Notes under the pieces: model-generated | Databases searched by the model: none | The model's input: only the letters and a program-made list of their open reading frames with translations | What the model was told of the DNA's origin: nothing | Made by a program: the position numbers and the translations under genes | Assembly (NCBI GenBank): GCA_045837725.1 | Contig: JBEWZL010000047.1 | Location: 49,644-69,643 of the forward strand | DNA: 20,000 nt | Direction of reading: 5' to 3' | Source: Vermamoeba vermiformis | Lineage: Eukaryota | Shown: positions 1 to 18,649 of the stretch, in pieces | Layout: each line of letters begins with the position of its first letter | How positions within the stretch are numbered: the first letter of the stretch is position 1

Positions 1-2909
1 ACCAAAAGGTACTTCTGAATTACAGTCGAAGCAGGACTAGTGGTTCGCATAATGTAAGCACCACTTCTTTGAGCGTCTCGGTATGCCATCAACTGGTGCA
101 CGTGTTAATAAGCACATCCAATACAATTTTGGCTTCATTACTTACGTCTTGGTTTAATTGCTGTGTTTTGCCTGTTTTTTTGTTCAGGATCTTGCCCATC
201 AAACCATTTGTCGAAGAGAAAATGATTTGTAAATTGTCGTTTTCAATGAACGCTGCCTCAGATCCATCAGCGTGAGTGATCGCAGCGAAGGAATAAATAC
301 TATCAACTTTAGGGCCATTGTAACCTTCGCGACTCCAAGCTTGTGTGGTCGGCACAGCAGCTAATGCAGTCGTCTCGGGATCCACCTTCAAGAAGTAGGT
401 TTCGGCTCCAAGTGGAGACACCTCAGCCAAAAAATACAAATAGAATCCAGTATTGTTTTTCAACGGATCAACGGGAATCATCTAGTCATAATGTTAGAGT
501 TAAAAATAAAACGAAATTAGTATCGCGTACCTCGCTTGGCACGTGATTGCCTGCAGCATCTGTGACAATAATCTTGTGCTTGGATTTGACGGTCAAATGT
601 TGGTACTGCTTTCGAGGCCAGCCAAGCGAGTTATGCACGGCAATAACGTAGTCAGTTTTCTCTTCGAAATCTAACACGCGCAATTCCGATTCAAACTCTG
701 GTGCTGCCTTATCACCAGCCAACAGCACCGACAATGACTTGGCGAGGGCAACTTTCGACGCATTGTAGCCCTTGTCGAGCCTGTTCGTGTAATCTTGAGC
801 CACGAATCCACGAGCTGTACCTGTAATGCCGTCGTGGTGTTGAACCAAAGCTGAGTCCTTTGCAGAAATCATAATTAATTAAAGCACTAAAATGTGATGT
901 TGTAATTGTGCATAGTCTAATCGTTGCACTAGATCCAGATCTAAGCTTAAGGAAAAACACTTACTCGGCGAGCCCATTTGAGATCATAAGCCGTATCAGC
1001 AATGTTAAGAATGTTCTTGCCATTAGGCACGTTTCCTTGCACGACCTTGTGATTGGCGAGTGCAACACCAGTCTCTGCAGACTTGATCATAGCATCCACT
1101 TCACGCGAGTGCAACTTCAGTGCAGGACGTGTGGTATAATAGCCCTGTTCATAGTTAGTATGTGCCCGCTTAGTATAACACTATACGTACTGTCCAATAG
1201 CTGTCGCCGTTGTCAGCGTACGGGAAGAAATCTCCGAAGAATGAGGGGAACTCGGCCTTCGCATTGTTGAGCGCATCAAAATATCGCGAGAGAGTTGAGT
1301 ATTGAATGTTAACACCAAAGTCAGGGTTGGCATTGATGTATTCTATCAACATATAAGAAATTGATCGTATGATCAGTTTTTCTGAAGGTACGTACTAATG
1401 AGCGGATCCATGTTAGAGAACTGTTTGGTGGCATCAACGAACTTAAAGTCATCGCCCCACGGTACCAACAAGTTATTAGTACGATAGGCAGTGGCTCTGC
1501 CCGTCAAAATATTGACGAGTTCTCGTGCACGCTTTGCTTTGTTCTCTTCTGTCGTGGTCATCCAAGTCTCTTCGAAATCAAATCCTCTTCAACAATGGAG
1601 TTAGCTAATAGTACAATATAACTTCATATTGTTAATGAAATTTTCGATGGAATGGTCGTATAATTAGTAAATTAGAATTATAACTTACTGAGGAGCAGAA
1701 TAATGCGTGTGAAGCACGTGGGTCATAATCTTCGAGTCAGCTCTATAATTGATTAATTTATAAGTATTCATAGTATCCATTATAGTGTTATTTTCTTACT
1801 GGTTCAATCCGTGCCAGATAAATTCCATGTGCTTTGCTGACTTGTACTTGTTCTAGGAAATATTTTCGTTACATTTCGTTCATAATAATTTTATATAATA
1901 GGTCTAGAGTTACCTTCAAATCAAAATGAATTCTATTGATAACAAGTGCATCAAATCCTGCTTTCGCGAACAAACTTGGAGTCAAAGATGAATGACCGAA
2001 CGGATCAATCTTAAAAAAATAAATAAGATTAAAATAATTAATGTTAATATTAATGTTGCTATTTACCTGCCAAGCAACGCGTGGTTTAACTTTGAAGTTT
2101 TCCCACAAGTATTGATGACCTTCTGTGACCTGATCTATCACTTGATGATAATGCGCATTGGCTTCATCGTTTTGGACCCATCCACCTGCAAATTATAATA
2201 TAATTATCTTTTCAAACAAGTGCACGAGAAATACGGATTAACGTTGTTCGTTAAACCGGATTTGACAACAAAAATTGAAAAAAATCAAAATAAATCTTAC
2301 CAGCGACGAATTCGAATTGCTTGTTATCAATTAACTTCTTTAGCTTCGCTTTGACGTCATTAGTTTGACTCTCGTACCACCGCTCAAAAAAAGAACTAGT
2401 CGTCGGAAAAATTAGAATCACAGCCGGAACTTTGCATGCAAAAAATTGATCGTATAATTATGATAAATAGGACTTACATCTCGGCCCAGACAAATGTACG
2501 CGAAGGATCTTTGGATAACTCGTTGACTACGTTTGTTAAGATCCGAGTTACGCGCATATTAAAATAACCCTAAAAAAGTTTTGTAGTTTTAGCAGCATTC
2601 GATTATAATAATATTAATTCAAGAAGAATATACTAATATGATCATGATATCATTTGATAAAAGGAGAATTCATTTTTTTGAATTTTGAAAAATAACGATC
2701 TGTTTTGAATTTACACAGAAAATCTTCTAAAATCGTGCTAACATTTAATTAATGGATTATTAGCATATAATAATTACCTCGAATGTTTCTAACCAGCCAG
2801 GATCGCAATGGGAATGCGGGATCAGATGAACATTCAAAGGCTCTGCAGACGATAGCCCAGCAAAGAGCACGACAGAACATGCAATAATAAATAAATATAT
2901 ATATCTCAT
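1..2909 (-). CDS. Lysosomal-type alpha-mannosidase, glycoside hydrolase family 38 (multi-exon; 3' end runs out of the window)
   Basis: The ATG at 2909 gives signal peptide [22 protein letters not shown], then [18 protein letters not shown] (GH38 Zn-binding HSHxDxGW). Spliced exons give [31 protein letters not shown] (nucleophile Asp), [41 protein letters not shown] and SGAYIMR. All joins are GT-AG and in frame. Confidence 0.95.
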
Positions 2910-3067: not shown

Positions 3068-4084
3068 ATGACGGCAGATAAAAGAAATGATTCAGTAACA
3101 ATAGGAGTTCGCTCGATCTTCAGTCGGCCATTAGATTTATTATTATGCTTTGTATTTTTAGTCAAGGCTATTATTGCCGCATATTCCGATATTATGAACG
3201 CTATAGGTAATTATTGCCAATCAAATTACGAAGTAACGGTCACCAGACAGATCCGTAATAGTTATTACGATGTCTTCTTTCCACAAATATTAATTACATT
3301 ATTTTCTCCTATAATTATTAAATGCAAATATTAATATTCGACGTAAGGAGCGAAAATAAGGCCGTAATTAATTTTTCTCCTTGTCAGGTCCGATCGAAGG
3401 CAAAATGTCGCCCGAAACCGTAAAAGATTATGCTTGGCCTCCTAAAATGTGGTGGGACTTATTTTGGTGGTGGACTGACTTGGCAGATCCTCATTTACGC
3501 GTCAATCCGGTCTGGCTCAAGGTCGGATGCGCCTTGTCGGCTTACGTTTATACTCCTTTCTATTTCATTGCCATCTACGCATTTGTGAAAGGTAATATAA
3601 GCACTCCTAGTTATATAGCATGAAGTCTAACCCTTTTTCGAAAGGACGTAACTGGATTCGTGATTGGGTCCTGATGTGGGGCTGGGGCATGATTTTGACT
3701 GTCGTAAGTAATATTAATACATTTAATACCACCCTTAAATATAATAATCGATTGTGGCTTAAACGTGTTCACGAAGATCTGATCCGTTGAGTTGGTCTCG
3801 TTACAAAATGATACAATAAGACATATTCGCCTATTACTTATACTTAAGTTAATGATTTCCATTCATTAGGTGTTTGTTTTGAGCGAATTAACTATGTCTG
3901 AGAAACATTACAGCAACAACTTGTTGCTCGCCTACATCGGTACGTAAATATACGGTCTTGAAACGTTACTTATTATTAATAATATGCTGCTGTAGTCTAC
4001 GGTGCTTATATTCTATTCCCATTCTTTGCAATGGTTCGCGTGTGGCCGAAAAATGTTTTTGGCGTAAAAGAGAAAAATGAATAA
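3068..4084 (+). CDS. EXPERA-domain (TMEM97/TM6SF/EBP-like) multi-pass ER membrane protein, 5 exons
   Basis: Spliced product: ..SRPLDLLLCFVFLV..DIMNAI/GP..WWDLFWWWTDLADPHLRVNPVWLK..YVYTPFYFIAIYAFVK/GRNWIRDWVLMWGWGMILTV/VFVLSEL../VYGAYILFPFFAMVRVWPKNVFGVKEKNE*. It has four hydrophobic segments, the DP..P.W motif typical of EXPERA, and a C-terminal KxKxx ER-retrieval signal (KEKNE). Confidence 0.75.
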
Positions 4085-5239: not shown

Positions 5240-8195
5240 TTAAATTTCCTCTTTGGAGTCAAAGTTAGCTTCTAAAATGTACTCATCCAAATCTGATTCT
5301 TCCTCTTCCAATTCACCCTCCAATTTGAATTCGGTTAGTTGCGCAAATTGTGCCACAAATGGACCGTAATAGAGTTTAATATTTTCTGAATGTACGATTG
5401 CCAAAGAAGCTGGCAAATCCTCAGGTATGTTGGTAATCGTCTTGTTGGTGATGAACAGATAAATCACAGTGTACTCCTGTTCAAAGATTTGAAGGCACTT
5501 TTGCAATGAGTTGAACCAATGCTCGATCTGGATGTAGTTAATTGTAGTAATTTCTTGTTTGGTGTCTGCCTTTTGCAGGTGCTTCAGCTGCTTGACGAGC
5601 ATCACTGGCTTTGAACCTTCTGCAGACTTGAAGAATGTGCGGCCATCAACACAGGGATTGCCTGTCTTGCAAAGGAAGGTATAGTGGAAAAATTCAATTT
5701 TTGGAACCTTTCGGACTTCAGTGACAATGTTCTGACGATTGTTAGTGATTAAAATTTGTAGCAGGAGACTAACCTCTTCGAGCGCAACTGGTCTCTTTGA
5801 ATTCTTTTTGATGAACTGCTCCACTTCAGTAGCACACTGTATGGGCTGTAGCTGAATTTTGATATTCGCTAGTGTTTGAGACAACTTGGCACCATTCAGA
5901 AGCTCACCGACTGTTATTGCTGTGTCTTTCACGTACATCAGTGCTTGAATACGAACAGGCTACATTTCAGATCCATTAGTTGTTGCTACGATAAATCAAA
6001 AAATAGAATACCATCAGTTGGTGATCAAGCAACTCAAACATATGCCAAGTAAATCGCACACCAAGAGAGGGCATCAGGCTTGGTGATATCAACGGCAATA
6101 AATTTGCACCGTATTCGTCAAGTCCGTAGGTTTCGTTTGCTTGGTGTACCCAATGGTAGGGCAAGAAAACACCAACATTTCGACGATAAATTATACCTTG
6201 AATTTCAAGTTGGTCTATCAATTGTGCTTGTAGAGTCTTGAGGAGAGAAAACGGCGTTCCAGCCAGAACAAAGTGAAGAAGTTTTCTAAAACCAGAAATT
6301 TCCTGAAGTTTTTTCATCATCTGCATGGTAAAGTCAGTGCGGTCAAGATAATAACTCATGTTACCTCAGTTGTTTTGTTCAGCAATTCGCTTGTAATTTG
6401 ACCAGTAATTGCCTCGATAGAGTCTTCAGATGGCTGAGCACTTGACAAATATCTCTGTATGATTGATATAATAGACTCTAAAACATGAGGTGTAGAGCAC
6501 ATCAAAAACAAAACTCGCTGAAATTTGACGTCTTCAAGCCAAGCCGCGTGGTTGGGTAAGCAAGCCAGGAAGATTTGTTTGATGCTGTCGAAAGAGAGCG
6601 GCGGCAGAGCCATCTTTAACTGCCCAAATCCAGAAGCAACGACAAACTGCTTGTCGATGACTTGCTCAACGGTGCCTGCTATGACAGGATATATAACGAA
6701 GTTGTCGATTGGAGCTCCAGATTTCATATATGTTCCGATGCATTTGAGAATATCTCGCGACAGTTGCAGATTCTGAGTGACAACGGTGTTAAACTCATCC
6801 AAGACCAGAATCACAGCACAAAGTCCAGGTGGGTAATCCAATCGTAGAGTCGCCATGACAGTATCGAAGGTAAAGGTCCGTCGAAGTAAGTCCGGGTAGT
6901 CCGCACATGTTGTTAAAAGGGCTGACTTTGTGCAGCCACACAGTGCCTTTGCAGCCACTCTCATGCCAAGAATTAACTCGCAATTAGTCTCACCCACAGT
7001 TAATTGATCTCTGTTACTGAAATCAATGTAAACAGTTACAACGCTAGTGATCTATTATCAATTTGTTAATTATTACCTTAAAATGAAACTTAGTGATTAC
7101 CTTTGGATTTTGTTTAACAAACTCGGTGCACCATTCTTTCATCTCCTCACAAATGCGCGATTTTCCGCTTCCGCTGCCAGCTGAGACCGTGCAAAAGAAG
7201 TGTCTATTTTTAGTAGTATTTCCGAATGCTGCGAAGTTTGAAGAGAATAATAACTGTGCAGTTTCTTTGGCTTCTCTCCGGTCAAGCAGTGGCATTTGCA
7301 TATATGTAACAGGGCCACTTCCAACTTTGAAAGGAATTGCAAGTTCCTTTCGTAAAGAGCGGATGAATGCAATCTTCTCGTTAATTGTTCGGAGGCGTAA
7401 AGTATTGGCATACTCCAACAAATACTTTTGTTCGGTGTCTGCGTTCCGTTAGTTATTAAAAACTGATTAAGAGGATCAACCAGTACTTACACGTGTCTAA
7501 AGTTAAATTTTGTAATTGACTTTCAATGGACAGGGCTGGGTGGGTAGTAGGTTTGTTTATTTCGATCTCAGCCCACAACTTCCGCAATAACATCTTTGAA
7601 ATCCTCTTCTGCTCTGTATATTCTTTGAAATCATCTAAAAGGTCTTCGAAGCTTTGGTACGTAATAAGGGTTTCGACGGAAAAGTTCAAGACTTTTCGCG
7701 CCCAAATCGCAACTTGTCTCTGGTGCCAATCAAGCTGCGGTGTGGTGTCTTTAGTTATATGGACACGTGCCCATTCCTCCAATTGCTCTTCAGACCACTT
7801 TTCAACAGGGAGAGTACAATCAAAAGACGTATCTGCGATTTTAAAAATATGTTAATTTGATGCTTATTTGCAGAATACGTAAAACTTTTTTTTAAATTCA
7901 ACGTTTGAGTTAATTTGATTGCTTATTATTTGCAAATAAACGATATACTATTCTAAACATATTAATTATTGCTCCGAGCGGGAATTTAATTAATTGAGAC
8001 AAAAAATGAGGATTTGGATTCAAATTTTCGGGCAAGTTAATTAAATTTCTTTTGGGTAGGTATTCAACTACGCGGTAAAGAAAATAAATAATAGAATATA
8101 ATTATTTTGATTTAGTACTATTTGGTGGCGCGTAATTTAGGCTAAATGCCCAACAATGCAGACCAATCGATGTTACCTCTATTTTTCACCTCCAT
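5240..8195 (-). CDS. Crinkler/RHS-like protein: SAM-like header + P-loop NTPase + PD-(D/E)xK restriction-endonuclease-fold domain, about 804 aa, 6 exons
   Basis: Exons 8195-8177, 7832-7491, 7438-7101, 7051-6365, 6320-6012 and 5959-5240 join through GT-AG introns into one 2415-nt frame. Motifs: VEKWSEEQLEEWA (SAM-like), SAGSGSGKSR (Walker A), VYIDFSN, VILVLDEFN (Walker B), PVIAGT, LPPLS, and C-terminal GNPCVDG...VKQLKH (D..QxK nuclease core). The 19-nt first exon is the least certain part. Confidence 0.75.
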
Positions 8196-8479
8196 TATAT
8201 TAATATAAGAAATTGTGCTGAAATACTTCGTCCGTGGTAATCAAACAAAGCAGAGATAAAGTTCAAAAAAATGGGCTTCCAATTTTTGACGATGTGCCCG
8301 CCTGCACTGACAGTGTTTGGGTGTCTCGAAGTCTAATATTCGTGACGATTAAAAGAAAGCGAGTTTGGTCCCAAATACGTCAAGATTAATGACATGGAAA
8401 GCAAAACGCCCACTGTCATAATGTCAACAAAAAATTTCTGCGAGCATTTTTATCTATTTTTGACCACAGGAACCACAGT

Positions 8480-11448
8480 ATGTCTAATATTGGTCATCTT
8501 GCTATCTTAGTGCTGCTGAGTACTACCCTGGTGTACTCTCAACAGCTTTCAATCTTCGTTGCGGTGGACGGATCGGATGCAACTGGTGATGGCTCGATGA
8601 ATAAACCGTTCCAGACAATTACCGCTGCCAGAGATTATATACGCAGTAATGTCACGAAAGCGAATTTTAACGGTACGTGAATAAAAGAAATTAAAATGCC
8701 TGTTGAAATTAATACTGAATTACGTAATGCAGAGATCAATGTCGAAGTTCGCGGTGGAATGTATTTCCTTGCCGATACCATTGCATTTACGCAAGAGGAC
8801 TCTGGCACTAACCAAACATTGGTTCGTTATAGGTAAATATCTTTTTGATTCCATTTTAAAAATATTGCTAGCGCGGTTAATTTTATTCCGGCTCGCTTTA
8901 TGAACAATACCAACATAAATCATGTTTTTAATTTTCTACAATTAGGGCATATAATAACGAGCAAGTTACTTTGGTTGGAGGTATTTCTCTTGGTGGATGG
9001 AGTTCCGTAACAGATTCGGGAGTGCTCAACCGCTTGAAGACCGATGCAAAAACAAATGTAAGGCGGTATTACTATAAGCATGTTATGTACGACATTAACA
9101 AGTTAAAATTAGGTCAAAGCAGCGTCTTTAGGTGATGCTGATCCGGGTACCTTACAGAACCGTGGATTTTCCTTCTTTGGAAATTATGCAGCTATGGAAT
9201 TGTTCTTCAAGACCGATCCAATGACCCTCGCACGATATCCTAATAACGTAAGTATCACAATTTGGCTATTTTTAGCTGACAAGCGCAACACAGGATTTTT
9301 TGTTGATCTCGGCCGTTACCGGATCAACAGTGCAATTCACTGAAGCCAATAGCAATGTCGCTAATTGGCAACAAGAAAGCGATCCGTGGGCCTTTGGATA
9401 CTGGAAGTACGATTGGGCCGATGAGTAAGTATCAACCTATCAAAATGTCAAAAACTTGATCTTATCCATGAATTGAATCAAACAGCTACGTGAAATTAGA
9501 TTCATTCAGTGCCAGTGGAAACAACGTGTCATTTCAAGTTGTCGGCGATCAGCCTGGATTTGGCATTGGTGCAGATCAGCGATTCTACTTCCAAAACTTC
9601 TTGTCTGAACTCGATAGTCCCGGCGAGTACTACATTGACCGTGCTAACAAAAAGATCTATTTTTGGCCTCCCAGCAACGACTACTCTGACAGCGACTTTA
9701 TTGTTTCAACCAACGATTACATCTTCAAGTTGAACGACGTGTCATATTTCACTCTCGAAGGATTTACCATTGAAGCCACTCGCAGATCAGTAAGTTAGTT
9801 GGATAAATTACCATAAAAGGAAATAATTGACTTATTAATTTTATTTCTAAGGGCATTGACGGTCGCGACCTGACTAATGTAAGACCGACGAAATCTCGGC
9901 CAAAAATATCCAATTAACATAGGATTTGTACAGGTGACAGTTCGTGGTCTGACTATTAGAAACACTGGCACTGACGGTGCTGTGTTAGAAGGCCCGAAGA
10001 ACATTCTTGTCGAGAACTGTGTGGTGAACAATCCAGGTGACCGTGGATTTTCATTCTACGGAGGAGACCGTGCCACGTTGACGCGATCAAGTAAGCCTTA
10101 CGATTACACTGTGATTGCAACCTAACGTGCTTTAGATCATATGGTACGCAATAACATTGTGAAAAATTTCAGTCGTTGGTCGAAGACTTACCGACCCGCG
10201 TTCAATGTTGATGGCGTTGGTACCACGATTGAGCACAATGAAATGTTCAACGGACCTCACACTGCGTTGTTGTGGAGCGGCAACTATCACACGATGCAGT
10301 ACAACATCATTCACGATGTAAGTACGACACTTTTCGAGAGACACTTTTACCTATTGTATTTGCAGGTTTGTCGCGAGACTGGTGACGTTGGTGCGTTTTA
10401 TTCTGGCAGAGATTGGACTCGCCGTGGTAACGTCATCAAGCACAACTTTTTCTAGTAAGTACAAACGTGTCATCATGGCGTCAAAGTCCTGTACTCACAC
10501 CGTCGTTACGCACAGCAACATCAATGGTCCTGGTGCTCTTGGTGCCTCAGGCGTTTATTTTGACGATCAGTACAGTTCTGGTGACATCATCGGAAACGTC
10601 TTTTACAACGTCTATCGCGTACGTAGAAGCTAATTTCTAAATGGCTCTCGTGTTCTCATTTTAACTGTCTCGCAGGCGATTCTGATCGGCGGAGGTCGCG
10701 ACAACAACATCCATTACAATCTGTTCGTTGACTGCCAGACCGGTGTTGCTATTGGTAAGTCAAAACATGGGTCGAGCGCGGAAATCCAATCCTGAAATTT
10801 CGTTTAGACGCTCGTGGATTGGGTCTGTGCGGACCTCAAAATGACGGTACTTTGAACACTAACTTGGACGCCGTGCCCTACAAACAAGAGCCCTGGTTGT
10901 CTGCTTTCCCGACTTTAGCAACCATTTTGGATGCAAGTACTGATTGCTTCGAACAAACAAATTAATGAAATTGATTCGTGGAATTTAACGCACATTATTT
11001 AGAATGAGCCCAACGCGCCTATAGGCAATAACTTTGGTTACAATTTGTTCGTCAACATGAGCGACACGTGGAAGTCGTTCTGTCCCGAGGATCAAGTCAC
11101 GCCGTTCATCAATATGACCGAGAACTGCTTCAATTTGACGCGCGAAGACTTTGTCGATGCTAACGGCCTCAACTTTGAGCTCGTGAGTGGTGCGCTGAAC
11201 AAGTGCTCCAGCTCATTCAGTGCCGTGTACCAGGCCATTCCATTCGATACCATTGGTGCCCAGAACTTAAGTACGTATTCTATATTATTATATGTTCTGT
11301 CTTATTAATCGATGGTGCAGATCAATCGCCTCAAAGCGGATCGGGTCCTTCAGCGTCTTCAAACACACCGAAAGCAGGTTCATCGGCAGTTAGCAACGCT
11401 AGTTCTTTACTCGTTTTTGTAGTTATGCTTGGTATTGGAATGTTTTAA
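8480..11448 (+). CDS. Secreted, probably GPI-anchored right-handed parallel beta-helix protein (GH141-like/pectin-lyase fold), 15 exons
   Basis: A signal peptide is followed by IFVAVDGSDATGDGSMNKPFQTITAARD, VRGGMYFL..F..EDSG, YRAYNNE, MELFF..MTLARYPN, GYWKYDWAD, RFYFQNFLSELDSPGEYYID, CRETGDVGAFYSGRDW, GVYFDD and IGGGRDN. It ends in a Ser/Pro linker and hydrophobic tail (LLVFVVMLGIGMF*). All 14 introns join in frame, one of them GC-AG. Confidence 0.85.
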
Positions 11449-12169: not shown

Positions 12170-13381
12170 ATGTCAACTGTATTCCTCATTGGCGCTGGTT
12201 ACATCGGCAATGCTGTTGCGATTGCATTAAGGTATCTAAAATATAGCATGAAATTAGCGTATTAATTCTTTGTTCAGACAAGCTGGCCATCACGTCACCG
12301 TTTTGGTGAGATCTGCACCCAAAGCAGCAGAGTTGCTCAAACACGAAATTCGCGTCGTCGAAGGGCAAGTAAATTATCAAATCTATATACCAGTTACTAA
12401 TATGAGCATTATAGTGATTTAAAGAATATCCAGACCTTTCAGAAGCAGATCGAAGAATCAAGCTACATTATTGACGCTTCTGGTGACATGCAAGCCTGCC
12501 ATACCTTATTAGCTGCCATCGAGAAAGCTTCCGAAAAGTAAGTCGTGCATTTCTATAATATCTGGAAATATCTTTATTCAATTGACCTTTTTTTTAGGGC
12601 ACCGAGATCGAAAACTTTTGTTTACACTTCCGGTGTTCTCGTGTACGGTGATAACCCCAACAAAATCCTCGATGAAACATCGCCTGTTGCAGCCAATCTT
12701 CACCCGTGGTCAAAGGGCAGATACGAATTTGAGCAAAAAGCGTTGCACTCAAGCCTCGTGCGCACGGTGATTATTCGACCTGGATTTGTTTACGGCAACA
12801 GTTCTGGCGGGTAAGTAACGTTGATATCAATTACAGCCGGGACCTTTAACTTATTGTTGACATTCAGTCTGGGACACATGGCTTTTGGAGCAGTATTGAA
12901 GGGTCAACTTACCATTGTTGGCAACCCTCAAAACAGGTACGCAATTCTTGCAAATAAGACTTAATATTGATATAATGCTATAGATTCGCCTATTCTCATA
13001 TCGCTGATCTTGCTGATGGTTATCGACGTGTTGTTGAAGCACCAGTAAGCGTCATCGACCGAGAAATTTTCAACATTGTTGACTTCTCACATCCAACCAA
13101 CGATGAGGTACGAATACAGCTAAAGCTCCTGATTTTTGTAATACTGATACTAATACTGTATTAAGATGTTGAAGGCTGCCGCGAAGGTTGCTGGCTTCAC
13201 TGGAAAACCCGAGTACCGCGCTGCGGAATCCGATTTTGAAAAGTTCGCTGATGTCAGCTGTGCCTGCTCACCACTTAAGACCATGAGACTACTCAACTGG
13301 ACCCCTCGTCACGTTGGCTTCGTTGAAGAAATTGAGCTCTACTTTAAGGCCTACAAAGCTGCCTATGGAATTCCCCTGTAA
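12170..13381 (+). CDS. NAD-dependent epimerase/dehydratase family (atypical SDR), 7 exons
   Basis: MSTVFLIGAGYIGNAVA (GxGxxG Rossmann motif), VTVLVRS, VVEG/DL, FVYTSGVLVYG, IIRPGFVYG, HIADLADGY, EIFNI and LLNWTPRH. One intron is GC-AG (12365-12414). Confidence 0.9.
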
Positions 13382-13884: not shown

Positions 13885-15364
13885 ATGAGAGAGCTGCTGT
13901 TCATCACCGTTTTGCTTGCAGCGATATTGAACGTGACTGCGCACTCAAGATTCGTTTGCCCGACGCCCAGAAGCGATAGCTCCGGTATTAAAACAGTAAG
14001 TTCCGTGATTAATTTTAAAATTGTATAATCAATGCACTCTTATGATAAATAACGCTAATACTGCAGGATATTAAAATAAAATCTTTGTAATTGAGCTGTA
14101 ATTTCCGTTTAACTGCCCTAGTAGCAATTATAATAGCAAAAATAATATAATTAATCAACCAAGGTATTAAAATTAATTTATGAAGGGACCATGCGGAGAT
14201 CAAACGAACGACTTCAGCGGACCCGTTACTGAGCTTTCTCCCGGCTGGAATACCTTAGTCATCGAAGAAACCGTTGTTCATAGTGGTGAGTCATAATTAT
14301 GGAGTTGATATAAGTGCCAGGCAAGCCGAGATTTATTTTGATACTCGCAGGAGCGCCGTTTAGAATTGCGTTGACGATTGGAGGAGTCGATGATTATAAA
14401 AGTAAGTTATTACTTGCAATTTTTTAATTCGTTGATATTGCGAACAACTTTGAACTAACGAAACTAAACTAAACGTAGTAAATCCGCTTCCCATTCCAAA
14501 ATAGGCACAAATATCGCTTTATTTATAGTTTGCCGCTAGTAATTATACCTTTTTATGTAGTAAAGATACTCGTTGCTAATCGCTTACGTATCTAATTATA
14601 GACACCTTACTCGATCACGTGCCACACAACGATGCCAATCCCACTAACGGCCGTTACTTCGTGAATGTTTATATTCCCGATATCAACTGTGCAAATTGCG
14701 CTATTCAATCGGGCAACTCGATGACTGGCGGTTACAGTGGCTGTACTCTGGATGGAGGTTGCTCGGCCTACTTCTCTTGCGCTAATATCAAGATTAACGG
14801 GTACATATCATAAAAGAATACACTGCATCGTATATATGTTAAAACAAGCAATAAGCAAGCTAATAGAACTAATTTTTCGCTTTCAGAACTACAGATCCCG
14901 CTACTTGGCAATCCAACTTTACTTACTCACCACCAGCAGACTGGCCTTATACTGTAAGTCTCGTATAGCTTGAATTAATGCATAAATTCGTCTATGGTTG
15001 CATTAAAAGCAATTAGGATCCGATCGCTCCAAACACCTATTTCTAATATAAATGGCTTGATAGGACACTCCTAACGTATACGGCGATGAATCGGCGACTT
15101 GGAAAGACGGTTGGATCGTAGGTATCAACTACAATCAACAGCCTGCTGGTGCTTGCGCTGCTGTCGTGGGCGGTGGAGGTAAGTCAGATCTTTGCGTAGA
15201 AATTCAATTGTATTTAAATTCTTATAGCCATACCTCCTACTATCTATATTCCTGCCGCGCCTAAACCTCCCACAGCTTCTACGCCAGTTAAGAAGTCTTC
15301 GAGCGCATCCGCAGTTCTTGCCAATATCTTGCTCTTGCTTAGCGCCATTTTGTTGCTCCTTTAG
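13885..15364 (+). CDS. Secreted, probably GPI-anchored His1 (histidine-brace) polysaccharide-monooxygenase-like copper protein, 7 exons
   Basis: Signal peptide MRELLFITVLLAAILNVTA is directly followed by H (CAC 13942-13944): HSRFVCPTPRSDSSGIKT/GPCG..EETVVHS/GAPFRIAL..LLDHVPH..IPDINCANCAIQ..YFSCANIKING. A Pro/Ser/Thr linker and hydrophobic tail (SSSASAVLANILLLLSAILLLL*) follow. All introns are GT-AG and in frame. Confidence 0.8.
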
Positions 15365-15703: not shown

Positions 15704-16991
15704 ATGCAATCCATTGTAAATTTTTTCTTTGGCAAAGAGCCTACACCGGAAGAAATGGTGAAAAAATGGAGAAGAGAAATTAGTTCTGAAGGGCGAACAA
15801 TTGATCGAACCATTAGAGGTCAGTGCTGCATCTGAATTTTTCCTAATAATTTTTGAAATTGAAAGCCTTTATTAACAAATCTGTAAATACTTTAGAAATT
15901 AAATACGAATTATTTACGTGCTAATTTCTATTTTTATTTGCAAAATTAACGCGTACGATTTTAGGTATCGAGCGAGAGGAAAATAAATTGAAACTCGAGA
16001 TCAAAAAAGCAGCCAAAGCTAATGATATGAAAACTGCAAAGTAAGTCGTTTTTGTAGGATTCCTTGCATTTATATAAATTAAAGCACACCGGACAGTAAA
16101 ATTTTTTTTGCAAATCCGGATCGCCCGCTCTCGTTTAGTTCAGAATTGAAATTACATTGACTAACGCATCCCTTGTTATCAATAGGACATTAGCTAAAGA
16201 AATAGTCCGCTCTCGCAAACACAAAGATCGTCTTTTTGTTTCAAAAGCTCAGCTCAACTCTGTCTCGCTACACTTACAACAGAACTTAGGTACCTTTAAT
16301 ATCTGCACTATGCATATCAATACATAGTAGCCGAGACCTATAATATTAATCACCTATTTATAGCTACATATAAAATGGCTGGCCATATCGCCAAGAGTGC
16401 TGAGGTGATGAAAGCGATGAACAATTTGATTCGATTGCCCGAGCTCAATAACGTCATGATGACCATGTCGCGAGAGATGGAGAAGGTTGGTATCTATAAT
16501 GTACAAAAACATGCATAATACCACAGCAATGATGAGCGTGCGATCTGCTCACATCCACGGCTGGATCTGCACGATGAATCCTCTTCACTATTATGCGATA
16601 ATATTGCAAGCACGTTACTAAAATATAGTTATATTATCATATTACATAGTGCCAGCGTTAATTATTCTCTTTTACCTTTAGGCCGGTCTGATCGAAGAGA
16701 TGATGGACGACATCTTGGACGAAGATGACGTGGAGGATGAAGTCGAAGAAGAAGTCGACAAAGTGGTCGATGAGCTCATCCTCGACATTGTGGATAGAAC
16801 TCCTGCTGCCAAGAGCAAAATACCCGCTGCTAAAGTGCAACAGCCTGCTCAAGTACGTACCTGTCAAACGAGATCTAGATCACGCACTCGAGTTATTATG
16901 ATTAATAGCAAACAATTAATTAATACGTATACTATAGGAAGAAAAAGATCTCGAATTGGAGAAGCGATATGAAGCTTTGAACAATATTTAG
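15704..16991 (+). CDS. VPS24: ESCRT-III subunit Vps24/CHMP3 (Snf7 family), 6 exons
   Basis: MQSIVNFFFGKEPTPEEMVKKWRREI..IDRTIR/GIEREENKLKLEIKKAAK../TLAKEIVRSRKHKDRLFVSKAQLNSVSL../..KSAEVMKAMNNLIRLPEL..MSREMEK/AGLIEEMMDD..EEEVDKVVDEL../..LEKRYEALNNI* (MIM1-like tail). Confidence 0.93.
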
Positions 16992-17563
16992 ATGATAGTA
17001 TGAGGATCGTAACGTACGTAAGTTCAAAATTTACTACGTTATTAGAATATTGTTTGAAAATCAAATTTGATGTAAATAGTGCCAAAATGTGATAAATATG
17101 TGTTAGCGATACCTTGAACGAGTGCGTTTGACTCGATTTTAAATTTCAGCTTTTTCAACGATTCAACAATAATATTTTGTTACTACTACTTATTACATTA
17201 CCAAATACTGTGCATGTAGTTTAATTGATATACAATATTGTGCATTACTTTCAGATCTTACCAGATCCTTCTGAAGAAAAATCACAAGTTGAATCTGAAG
17301 TTCACTTTGCTTGGTATGTATGAGTAGCACGAAACGGAGGGTCAGCGGAAAGATCATTCGGTGTACAGTGCTTCCGTTCCAGAATTTTCCAAAAAAGGAA
17401 ATTTTACCTTCTGAACAGCTTCGTGAAGAACGGTGGAAGAAATTTGAAAAATATAAATTGAAATCGATCTGAGTTGTTATTTATCAATTGCAAATAACAA
17501 TCAAAAAGCAATACGACAAACTCTTCCCCCTTCTACTTCTTTCAAAAACAAATCCGCTAAACA

Positions 17564-18649
17564 ATGTCCAACCAATTCAAGACTGTTTTGATCGCTGGAG
17601 CCACTGGTTTCCTCGGCTTCAAAGTCGCCAATGCCTTCTCGGACAAGAAGCAATTCAATGTCCGTATCCTCGTCCGCAAGGCGAGCGACAAATCCGATCA
17701 GCTCAAATCCAAGGGCGCTCAAGTAACCGAAGTTGACTTCAATGACTCTGAAGCACTCAAGAAGGTAAGTCGTGATATACTATGGCTTATTAATATTAAT
17801 TGTATCATTTAGGCCCTTACTGGCGTGGACGCTGTTGTTTCAGTTCTTTCCAACGACGGATTCGGTGTTCAACCAGCTCTTATTGCCGCCGCTACTGCTA
17901 GCGGTGTTAAGCGCTTCATTCCTTCCGAGTTCGGTGCCAGCATTTCATTCGCTCCTCCTGGCACTTCTGGCTTGCTTGACTACAAGTGGGGCATCCGCGA
18001 ACAGATCCAAAAAACCGGCATGGAGTACACTTACATTAGCAATCACATCTTCATGGAGTACTTGTTCAGCCCGTTCGGTGGTGTTGACCTCAAGAACGCT
18101 ACTATCGACACTTACGGCCCGGATGTGACTTTCAGCACGATCCACACTGACGACATTGCTCGCTTGGTCCCTGAAGTCTTGTTGAATCCTAATAGCAAGA
18201 ATAAGGAAGTTCATCTTGGTGCTCAGACCTTCAAATGGGACGACATTGCCACCCAACTCGAGAAACTTACTGGTACGTTAAAAAAGATCAATAACAATAA
18301 TTATTACGTAAATCGCGCGTACTCGGCATTTTTATGAAATTTAAAAAAACAACGAAATTTCGCAAATGATGGATTAAAATTTGGATGATTTCTGTGACTT
18401 ACGGAGTTTTTTGGACCGACAGGCAAGAGCTGGAAAAAACAACAATTAACTGACGAGAAATTGACCGAGACCATCACCACTTCGCAAGACATCATTGTTG
18501 CATTCGGCGCTACTTTGCAACGTCAAGCATTGAGACTTAAAACCACCGTTTTGCATCCTCTTGATAACTTGACGGATCCATTCTACGAACCAACCAAGAA
18601 GAACTTAATTAAGGTCGAAGATTACCTCGCTCAAATCACCAAGCAATAA
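17564..18649 (+). CDS. NmrA-like / isoflavone-reductase-like NAD(P)-binding oxidoreductase, 3 exons
   Basis: VLIAGATGFLG (Rossmann motif), ALKK/ALTGVDAVVSVL, QPALIAAATASGVKRFIPSEFG, K..IREQI..TGMEYTYI and IHTDDIAR. Introns are at about 17764-17812 and 18273-18422. Confidence 0.92.

Follow-up and report, generated by a model that had tools for sequence, protein, structure and literature searches.

Is there a histidine-brace protein hidden in this stretch of Vermamoeba vermiformis DNA, and if so, is it an oxidative enzyme or a copper carrier? Histidine-brace proteins are either cutters of polysaccharides or carriers of copper, and sequence alone has repeatedly failed to separate the two, as far as the available portions of two papers go (PMC7924993, PMC7529816). 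A preliminary description of the 20,000 nucleotides analysed here, which we call the window, was made from the letters alone. It proposed that positions 13885-15364 hide a split gene for an LPMO-like protein, with a His at the first mature position and probably a GPI anchor.

The gene is real. Joining seven exons of the plus strand (13885-15364) gives an open frame of 259 amino acids, and the six introns are all of the GT..AG type, with a GC content of 0.25-0.40 as against 0.43-0.55 in the exons. Splicing was checked with contigs from 4 of 17 candidate runs (4 studies), which are presumed to be runs of RNA. Introns 2 (65 nt, 14286..14350) and 3 (200 nt, 14402..14601) are absent from the contigs in all four runs. 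Introns 1 (190 nt, 13996..14185) and 4 (86 nt, 14801..14886) are removed exactly in three, with a few variant letters at each joint in the fourth, while introns 5 (110 nt, 14954..15063) and 6 (49 nt, 15179..15227) are absent in two of the four. Contigs that lack the introns indicate an origin from cDNA. The proposed division into seven exons is thus borne out, both by the open spliced frame and by the contigs that skip the introns.

Exon 1 (13885..13995) encodes a predicted signal peptide (amino acids 1-19), followed by His20, a P-x-P-R motif and Lys36, which is conserved in 122 of 134 homologue rows; the contigs, the frame, the homologue alignment and the -3/-1 rule all contribute to this assignment. 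Exon 2 (14186..14285), supported by contigs and homologues, holds Cys40, Glu65 and His69, the second His of the putative brace. Exon 3 (14351..14401) carries a core strand with the conserved motif P-F-R-I-A-L, as judged from the contigs, the frame and the homologues. The contigs, the homologues and a match to the family model NF043005 define exon 4 (14602..14800), which contains the branch-specific H93-x-P-H96, a CxxC motif (117/120), a divergent MTGG loop where the family has MTDK, Cys135, Cys141, Tyr144 and Cys147. A Trp/Pro-rich C-terminal extension, common to close homologues, begins in exon 5 (14887..14953; contigs, homologues) and ends in exon 6 (15064..15178; contigs, homologues, model), where it includes Tyr182, Glu185, Trp189 and Cys207 and is ordered in the model of a stand-in homologue. 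Exon 7 (15228..15364; contigs, frame) encodes a Pro/Thr/Ser-rich stalk, a run of small residues with a candidate omega site at about S238-S240, and a hydrophobic C-terminus that ends at the stop codon with no tail behind it. On inspection this is a GPI-type ending, which suggests GPI anchoring. The His that follows VTA (codon 13942..13944) and the second His (codon 14279-14281) lie where the preliminary description had placed them, and the CxxC, the YFSCANI (144-150) and the hydrophobic end that it had listed are likewise present in the spliced protein.

A search with exon 4 gave one full-length homologue, which led to a set of 19. In a space of 1.84 billion representatives, clustered at 50% identity, a profile of these 19 matches 1621, 877 and 171 clusters at E-values up to 1e-3, 1e-10 and 1e-30, counts that include bacterial members. 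The best 150 matches were retrieved, and the closest homologues among those retrieved share only about 36-46% identity with the protein. In the alignment of 159 homologues, counting the rows that have a residue at the position, His69 is His in 149/155, Tyr144 is Tyr in 146/151, Met128 is Met in 142/154, and the near-invariant Glu65 is found in 148/155; His93 and His96 are kept in 133/158 and 140/157. The proposal had been made to depend on conservation of the first His, and at position 20 a His stands in 117 of 124 rows. In addition, His20, His69 and a Tyr or Phe at position 144 co-occur in 108 of the 116 rows that cover all three positions. From these figures the pattern of landmarks is more than chance.

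Two sites of signal cleavage, one after A19 and one after S21, are compatible with the -3/-1 rule. The first is favoured mainly by the leaders of the homologues: in 111 of 111 with both His1 and a leader, the residue before His1 fits a signal-peptidase site (A in 55, G in 32, S in 18, C in 5 and Q in 1 at position -1), and position -3 is small or aliphatic. His20 is predicted to be the first mature residue, and the homologues support this strongly. The codon 13942..13944 would then specify the N-terminal copper ligand, a role consistent with the frame, with its conservation and with the stand-in model, where it matches the first residue of LPMO structures.

The stand-in is P0037, a homologue that is 42% identical over 223 amino acids, and all statements on the fold refer to it rather than to the window's own protein. 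Its model (pLDDT 89, pTM 0.80) is closest to TdAA15A, a member of AA15 (PDB 5MSZ; Z 11.8, rmsd 2.3, 134 aligned), among 48,161 chains, and Foldseek also puts this structure first (E 4e-4). Other matches include AA11 (PDB 7P3U) at Z 10.7, LaX325 at 10.4, an AA10 at 10.0 and AA13 at 9.9. The top 22 structural rows are all LPMO or LPMO-like (the top 16 at Z 8.0-11.8) and the first unrelated row has Z 6.8. The alignments start at His1, with His19 of the model on residue 1 of the LPMO chains. As modelled, the fold of this close homologue is unambiguously that of an LPMO, so the LPMO-like beta-sandwich anticipated for the gene is supported on the stand-in. That said, rows within 1 Z count as tied, and the fold therefore cannot choose between AA15, AA11 and X325.

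The residues of the presumed metal site can be compared with known copper proteins. The best sequence-profile match in the PDB is the AA10 protein ScLPMO10C/CelS2 (PDB 4OY7; E 1.9e-4 with profile A5 and 7.2e-6 with the bacterial profile A6; Z 9.6); of two further searches of PDB sequences, A1 gave no match at E up to 10 and A2 gave only the AA16 entry 7ZE9, at E 0.12. In profiles with bacterial and other members, His69 and Tyr144 align to the second His and the axial Phe/Tyr of ScLPMO10C and TdAA15A, and His1, His2 and the axial Tyr of the stand-in align to AA15 and AA11, its best structural matches. Modelled on the stand-in, His20 would lie close to His69 as a copper brace. The preliminary description had included the late aromatic residue in the brace. 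Its three residues are indeed conserved, but the aromatic one is the axial residue of the LPMO type and no member of the brace itself. CxxC-x-L-Q and a terminal C-A-x-I are common to AA15 and this protein; identity to AA15 and AA11 is 17-20%, and there is here neither a Glu at the position two before the Tyr nor a pair of Trp residues in the strand that follows the Gln.

The second sphere is where the protein departs from AA10. In the part of PMC11137697 available to us, the key second-sphere positions of ScAA10C are Arg212, Asp214, Glu217 and Phe219, and Glu217, two residues before the axial aromatic, tunes LPMO reactivity; the role of a second-sphere Gln/Glu in such tuning is also the subject of PMC10472438, as far as its available text goes. 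Against this Arg-Asp-Glu-Phe the family has approximately Met-Asp-Ser-Tyr and our protein Met-Gly-Ser-Tyr, the register of the first two positions being uncertain by one residue. Ser142 occupies the place of the Glu; in that column 50 of the 69 rows with a residue have Ser. The near-invariant Glu65 might substitute for the absent Gln/Glu, although this is a guess.

The other comparison is with X325/Bim1 (LaX325, PDB 6IBH; PF20238), which the protein resembles in the compact LPMO fold of the stand-in (for LaX325, rmsd 2.7 over 123 aligned) and in its putative GPI-type anchoring. The family's MT-D loop may be the counterpart of the X325 Asp loop; profile searches of the PDB aligned no individual residues with LaX325. 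X325/Bim1 proteins have an extra ligand, an Asp from a Gly-rich loop, that closes a site which LPMOs leave open, whereas an axial Tyr and a free equatorial site belong to the LPMO side of this contrast (PMC7529816, in its accessible sections). The family loop Asp is present in 138 of 155 rows and is Gly130 here, where MTGG lacks the Asp-Lys of MTDK. The protein differs from X325/Bim1 in having no Asp in the candidate loop and in its conserved Tyr at the axial position, and, if the two loops are equivalent, its copper site would be uncapped. Weak matches to the BIM1-like model PF20238 occur in 9 of the first 19 homologues, the eukaryotic-type scores shown being 18.6-21.2 bits against a cut-off of 27, and four bacterial members (L016, L021, L025 and L028) exceed that cut-off. 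When the genome was searched with PF20238, neither the gene nor the controls gave a match.

To which family does the protein belong? The nearest named one is NCBIfam NF043005, the SCE4755 family polysaccharide monooxygenase-like protein (a hypothetical equivalog). Exon 4 alone matches it at E 1.5e-6 over model positions 93-145, as do 19/19 of the first homologues and 40/40 of a second set (E 1.3e-9 or better), only 6/40 of the latter passing the 75-bit cut-off. The spliced protein scores 66 bits over 126/128 positions of a profile made from bacterial members. Its NF043005 score is estimated by regression at 57 +/- 7 bits (r 0.83, 40 homologues), so it is probably below the cut-off. A Pfam scan of five exon pieces matched no family; for Pfam LPMO_10 in particular there was no match in these pieces or in the genome, and its cut-off was reached by one of 26 long homologues and by three bacterial relatives.

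Shared with NF043005 are His1, P-x-P-R, K-x-x-PCG, E-T-x-x-H-x-G, R-I-A, CxxC-x-L-Q, Met-Thr and Y-x-S-C-A. The differences are that the gene is eukaryotic and contains introns, and that its product has a GPI-type tail. The H-x-P-H motif, moreover, is found in 109 of 160 homologues and in none of 18 bacterial SCE4755 members, which also lack the extra Cys pair and the Trp-rich extension of the non-bacterial rows. After Met-Thr the protein has no acid, whereas the bacterial members have MxD/E in 17 of 18 cases and MND in the other.

A motif scan gave 24 bacterial loci, of which, by record title, 16 come from myxobacteria, 4 are of Bdellovibrionota type and 4 belong elsewhere, a split that the motif pattern may have biased; 18 of the 24 were translated and 12 entered the tree. 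In this quick tree (157 rows, midpoint root) the 12 bacterial rows form one group that does not include our protein (SH-aLRT 96). The distance from our protein is 2.9 changes per site to the closest bacterial row and 1.3 to the closest homologue. Most of the other rows are taken to be eukaryotic because they have cytosolic tails and Hint, WW, GYF and CHRD domains. The proposed likeness to the myxobacterial SCE4755 proteins holds in that theirs is the nearest named family; the protein is not, however, simply of myxobacterial type, for it falls in a separate branch with an estimated score that is probably below the cut-off. This branch outside the bacterial SCE4755 clade is large and apparently eukaryotic. 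Our literature search, which left most subscription journals outside, found no paper naming SCE4755 or treating the eukaryotic branch. The fold and the parent family are known by name, and the branch with this protein was not found in the literature searched.

One member lies on a contig of a giant-virus MAG. It is intact, 272 amino acids long (L032:3962-4780, plus strand), and groups with the non-bacterial rows. Next to it are an SNF2-like helicase and an ADP-ribosyltransferase-like ORF, and mis-binning of the contig is possible. An Atlas cluster is listed with 71% viruses, a figure that rests on 7 members of known phylum. A scan of the viral collection with the L032 protein matched only itself and other scans gave no further member; with a single viral locus in these scans, wide viral spread is not supported.

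The 43-Mb genome contains a second copy of the gene on contig C214 (L002, G000:C214:76548-79778, flanks included). The two copies share about 94% DNA identity, and since this runs through flanks and introns too, a paralogue is not favoured; the second copy is probably an allele or haplotig, and together with its flanks it suggests that the assembly contains separated haplotypes. The copies differ by 13 synonymous and 7 non-synonymous codons, with zero amino-acid changes within residues 20-155. Among 14 variants listed in the coding region from RNA, the 7 that fall within residues 20-155 are all synonymous. By this comparison of copies and strains, in which only synonymous change is seen, the domain is under constraint. 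The odd SGNSMTGG loop is no sequence error, as the RNA contigs and the copy on C214 both carry it as well. That it stems from RNA editing or an overlooked intron was also considered and is rejected, since the contigs read identically there. The protein departs from the family at Ser124, Gly125 and Ser127 too, where homologues are mostly hydrophobic or have Pro; these residues lie outside the commonest ones listed for 156 homologue rows, and on this account it may be a weakened family member.

A hydropathy rule classes 105 of 153 rows as tethered to the membrane, 63 of them by a transmembrane segment with a tail and 42 (our protein included) by a GPI-like end. Among 26 homologues chosen for length, two, P0070 and P0137, combine the His-brace domain with a cytochrome b561 (in one case scoring just under the cut-off) and with one or two DOMON domains, and P0114 carries a glucose/sorbosone dehydrogenase domain. 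The Met and His residues expected at the heme positions are present by eye in the DOMON-b561 fusions, and P0070 is encoded on one 2626-nt contig. Looking for further long fusions among 97 candidates yielded two proteins and no new DOMON-b561 fusion, and we found no paper joining LPMO, DOMON and cytochrome b561. The DOMON-b561 fusion, as read from domain matches, supports redox cycling of copper and fits a cupric reductase for uptake equally well. Other partners of the long homologues are Hint, WW, GYF, trypsin and other non-redox domains; a Pfam carbohydrate-binding module was found in none of the 26. In four of the 26 (P0053, P0090, P0098 and P0110) a Hint self-processing module follows the His-brace domain. 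A well-supported group of P0140, P0145 and P0156 (625-784 amino acids) contains repeats that follow the His-brace domain, and in P0145 also a CHRD match and a GPI-like end; the three may be animal proteins.

That the product is a histidine-brace copper-binding surface protein of some kind we hold to be very probable. More narrowly, we propose that it is a secreted, probably GPI-tethered monocopper protein with an LPMO beta-sandwich that performs LPMO-type redox chemistry at the cell surface, and we give this a probability of roughly 0.45. The gene is transcribed and spliced, as the contigs show. Signal cleavage after Ala19 would, by analogy with the homologues, expose His20; a single copper would be held by His20 and His69 with Tyr144 as axial residue, in line with conservation and the stand-in fold; and the Pro/Thr stalk and GPI-type tail would display the domain on the membrane. 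Electrons to reduce the copper would come from outside the domain, in some relatives perhaps through the fused DOMON-cytochrome b561 chain. More speculatively, Cu(I) with H2O2 or O2 may oxidise a surface glycan, e.g. the wall of a food organism, the cell's own coat or the cyst.

This proposal draws on the joint occurrence of His20, His69 and Tyr144, the fold of the stand-in, the axial Tyr and the lack of an acid in the MT-D loop, as well as on the DOMON-b561 and dehydrogenase fusions, the constraint on the domain and the intact member in the giant-virus MAG. It is weakened by the Ser in place of Gln/Glu, the lack of carbohydrate-binding modules, the structural tie with X325, the BIM1-like matches, the fit of DOMON-b561 to metal reduction, the residues at 124, 125 and 127, and the uninformative bacterial neighbourhoods. 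The rival reading is capture and hand-over of copper in the manner of Bim1, which is GPI-anchored and serves copper uptake (PMC10952591, PMC7924993, in the parts available); the available parts of PMC10952591/PMC7924993 and PMC7529816 give X325/Bim1 as not cleaving polysaccharides. Here the brace would bind extracellular copper, Met128 with His93 and His96 would hold or pass on Cu(I), and b561 partners would be cupric reductases feeding an importer. The prevalence of membrane tethers, the conservation of these three residues, the absence of both Gln/Glu and binding modules, and the bacterial members above the BIM1-like cut-off are all in favour, and the family Asp could cap the copper as in X325. 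It is this Asp that is missing here, where the RNA contigs and the second copy likewise give Gly130, and the near-invariant Tyr at the axial position is an LPMO trait. In addition, the family Asp aligns to an Asn of the TdAA15A loop and, to within one residue, to Asp214 of ScAA10C, so active LPMOs carry a polar residue there too, and no copper-homeostasis genes were seen among the scanned bacterial neighbours. We regard copper hand-over as a serious possibility, close in standing to surface redox chemistry.

It is unlikely that the protein is a non-catalytic lectin, adhesin or recognition protein of the cell surface that keeps the LPMO fold, with copper perhaps structural only and this copy perhaps partly degenerate. 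The loss of the Asp-Lys and of the hydrophobic residues at 124, 125 and 127 would agree with such a role, as would the fusions to domains without a redox function (Hint, WW, GYF and trypsin among others), and an LPMO with a role in recognition has been published (PMC9550227, known to us in part). Yet all three metal-site residues are kept, in a domain with only synonymous change between copies and strains. Most improbable of all is that the likeness to LPMOs arose by chance or from an error in splicing the exons together, with a mature protein that does not start with His: a second compatible cleavage site after Ser21 and a fold known from P0037 only leave room for it, but the splicing is seen in contigs, the 111 leaders all fit, and the P0037 fold is unambiguous.

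Returning to surface redox chemistry as the preferred reading, the branch is of interest since it combines features of polysaccharide-cutting enzymes and of copper carriers. If its members are enzymes, they form an LPMO-like family that acts on new substrates and may have an electron supply of its own in the membrane; if they are carriers, copper uptake of the Bim1 type reaches well beyond fungi. This protein and an Asp-bearing homologue are a natural pair for studying the role of the loop Asp. With some hesitation, and with the odds against it, we also put forward a broader proposal: an undescribed class of cell-surface copper oxygenases that many microbial eukaryotes would share with predatory bacteria and at least one giant virus. 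It would have a Met/Tyr second sphere lacking the canonical Gln/Glu, would be wired in some eukaryotes to cytosolic reductant via DOMON-b561, and would include this protein as a natural variant without the loop Asp. If this were true, the loss of the Asp would offer a direct test of what separates a capped carrier from an open oxidative site.

The genes around the family members gave no functional hint, either in the window or in bacteria. Across 26 hand-picked ORFs from 11 bacterial loci no copper or glycan genes recur. A GH5 and a GMC oxidoreductase are single cases each, and three related Bdellovibrionota loci (L011, L015 and L022) have a ChaN-like haem-uptake gene close to the SCE4755 gene, which may be shared gene order. 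In the window we find an alpha-mannosidase (89-2457, minus strand), an EXPERA-domain gene (3372-4080, plus) and an NmrA-like gene (12186-13381, plus) by Pfam, and by eye, with no Pfam match on the scanned pieces, an epimerase-like (15705-17000, plus) and a VPS24/CHMP3-like gene (17561-18649, plus). A multi-exon gene at 5240-7851 on the minus strand encodes a short N-terminal domain and a P-loop-like motif, in a layout that we take to be Crinkler-like; the one exon scanned has no Pfam match. At 8393-11448 on the plus strand lies a multi-exon gene for a secreted protein with beta-helix-like repeats (by eye; one exon without a Pfam match) and a GPI-like tail resembling that of the LPMO-like gene.

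Finally, the genome holds a second, different His1 gene, split by introns, on the minus strand of another contig (L007:985-1724; G000:C239). It has a signal peptide ending in A-H, a P-x-P-R motif, a second His in N-H-G-G, a late Y-Y-G-C and a hydrophobic tail, and from its sequence it looks like another GPI-type LPMO-like protein.
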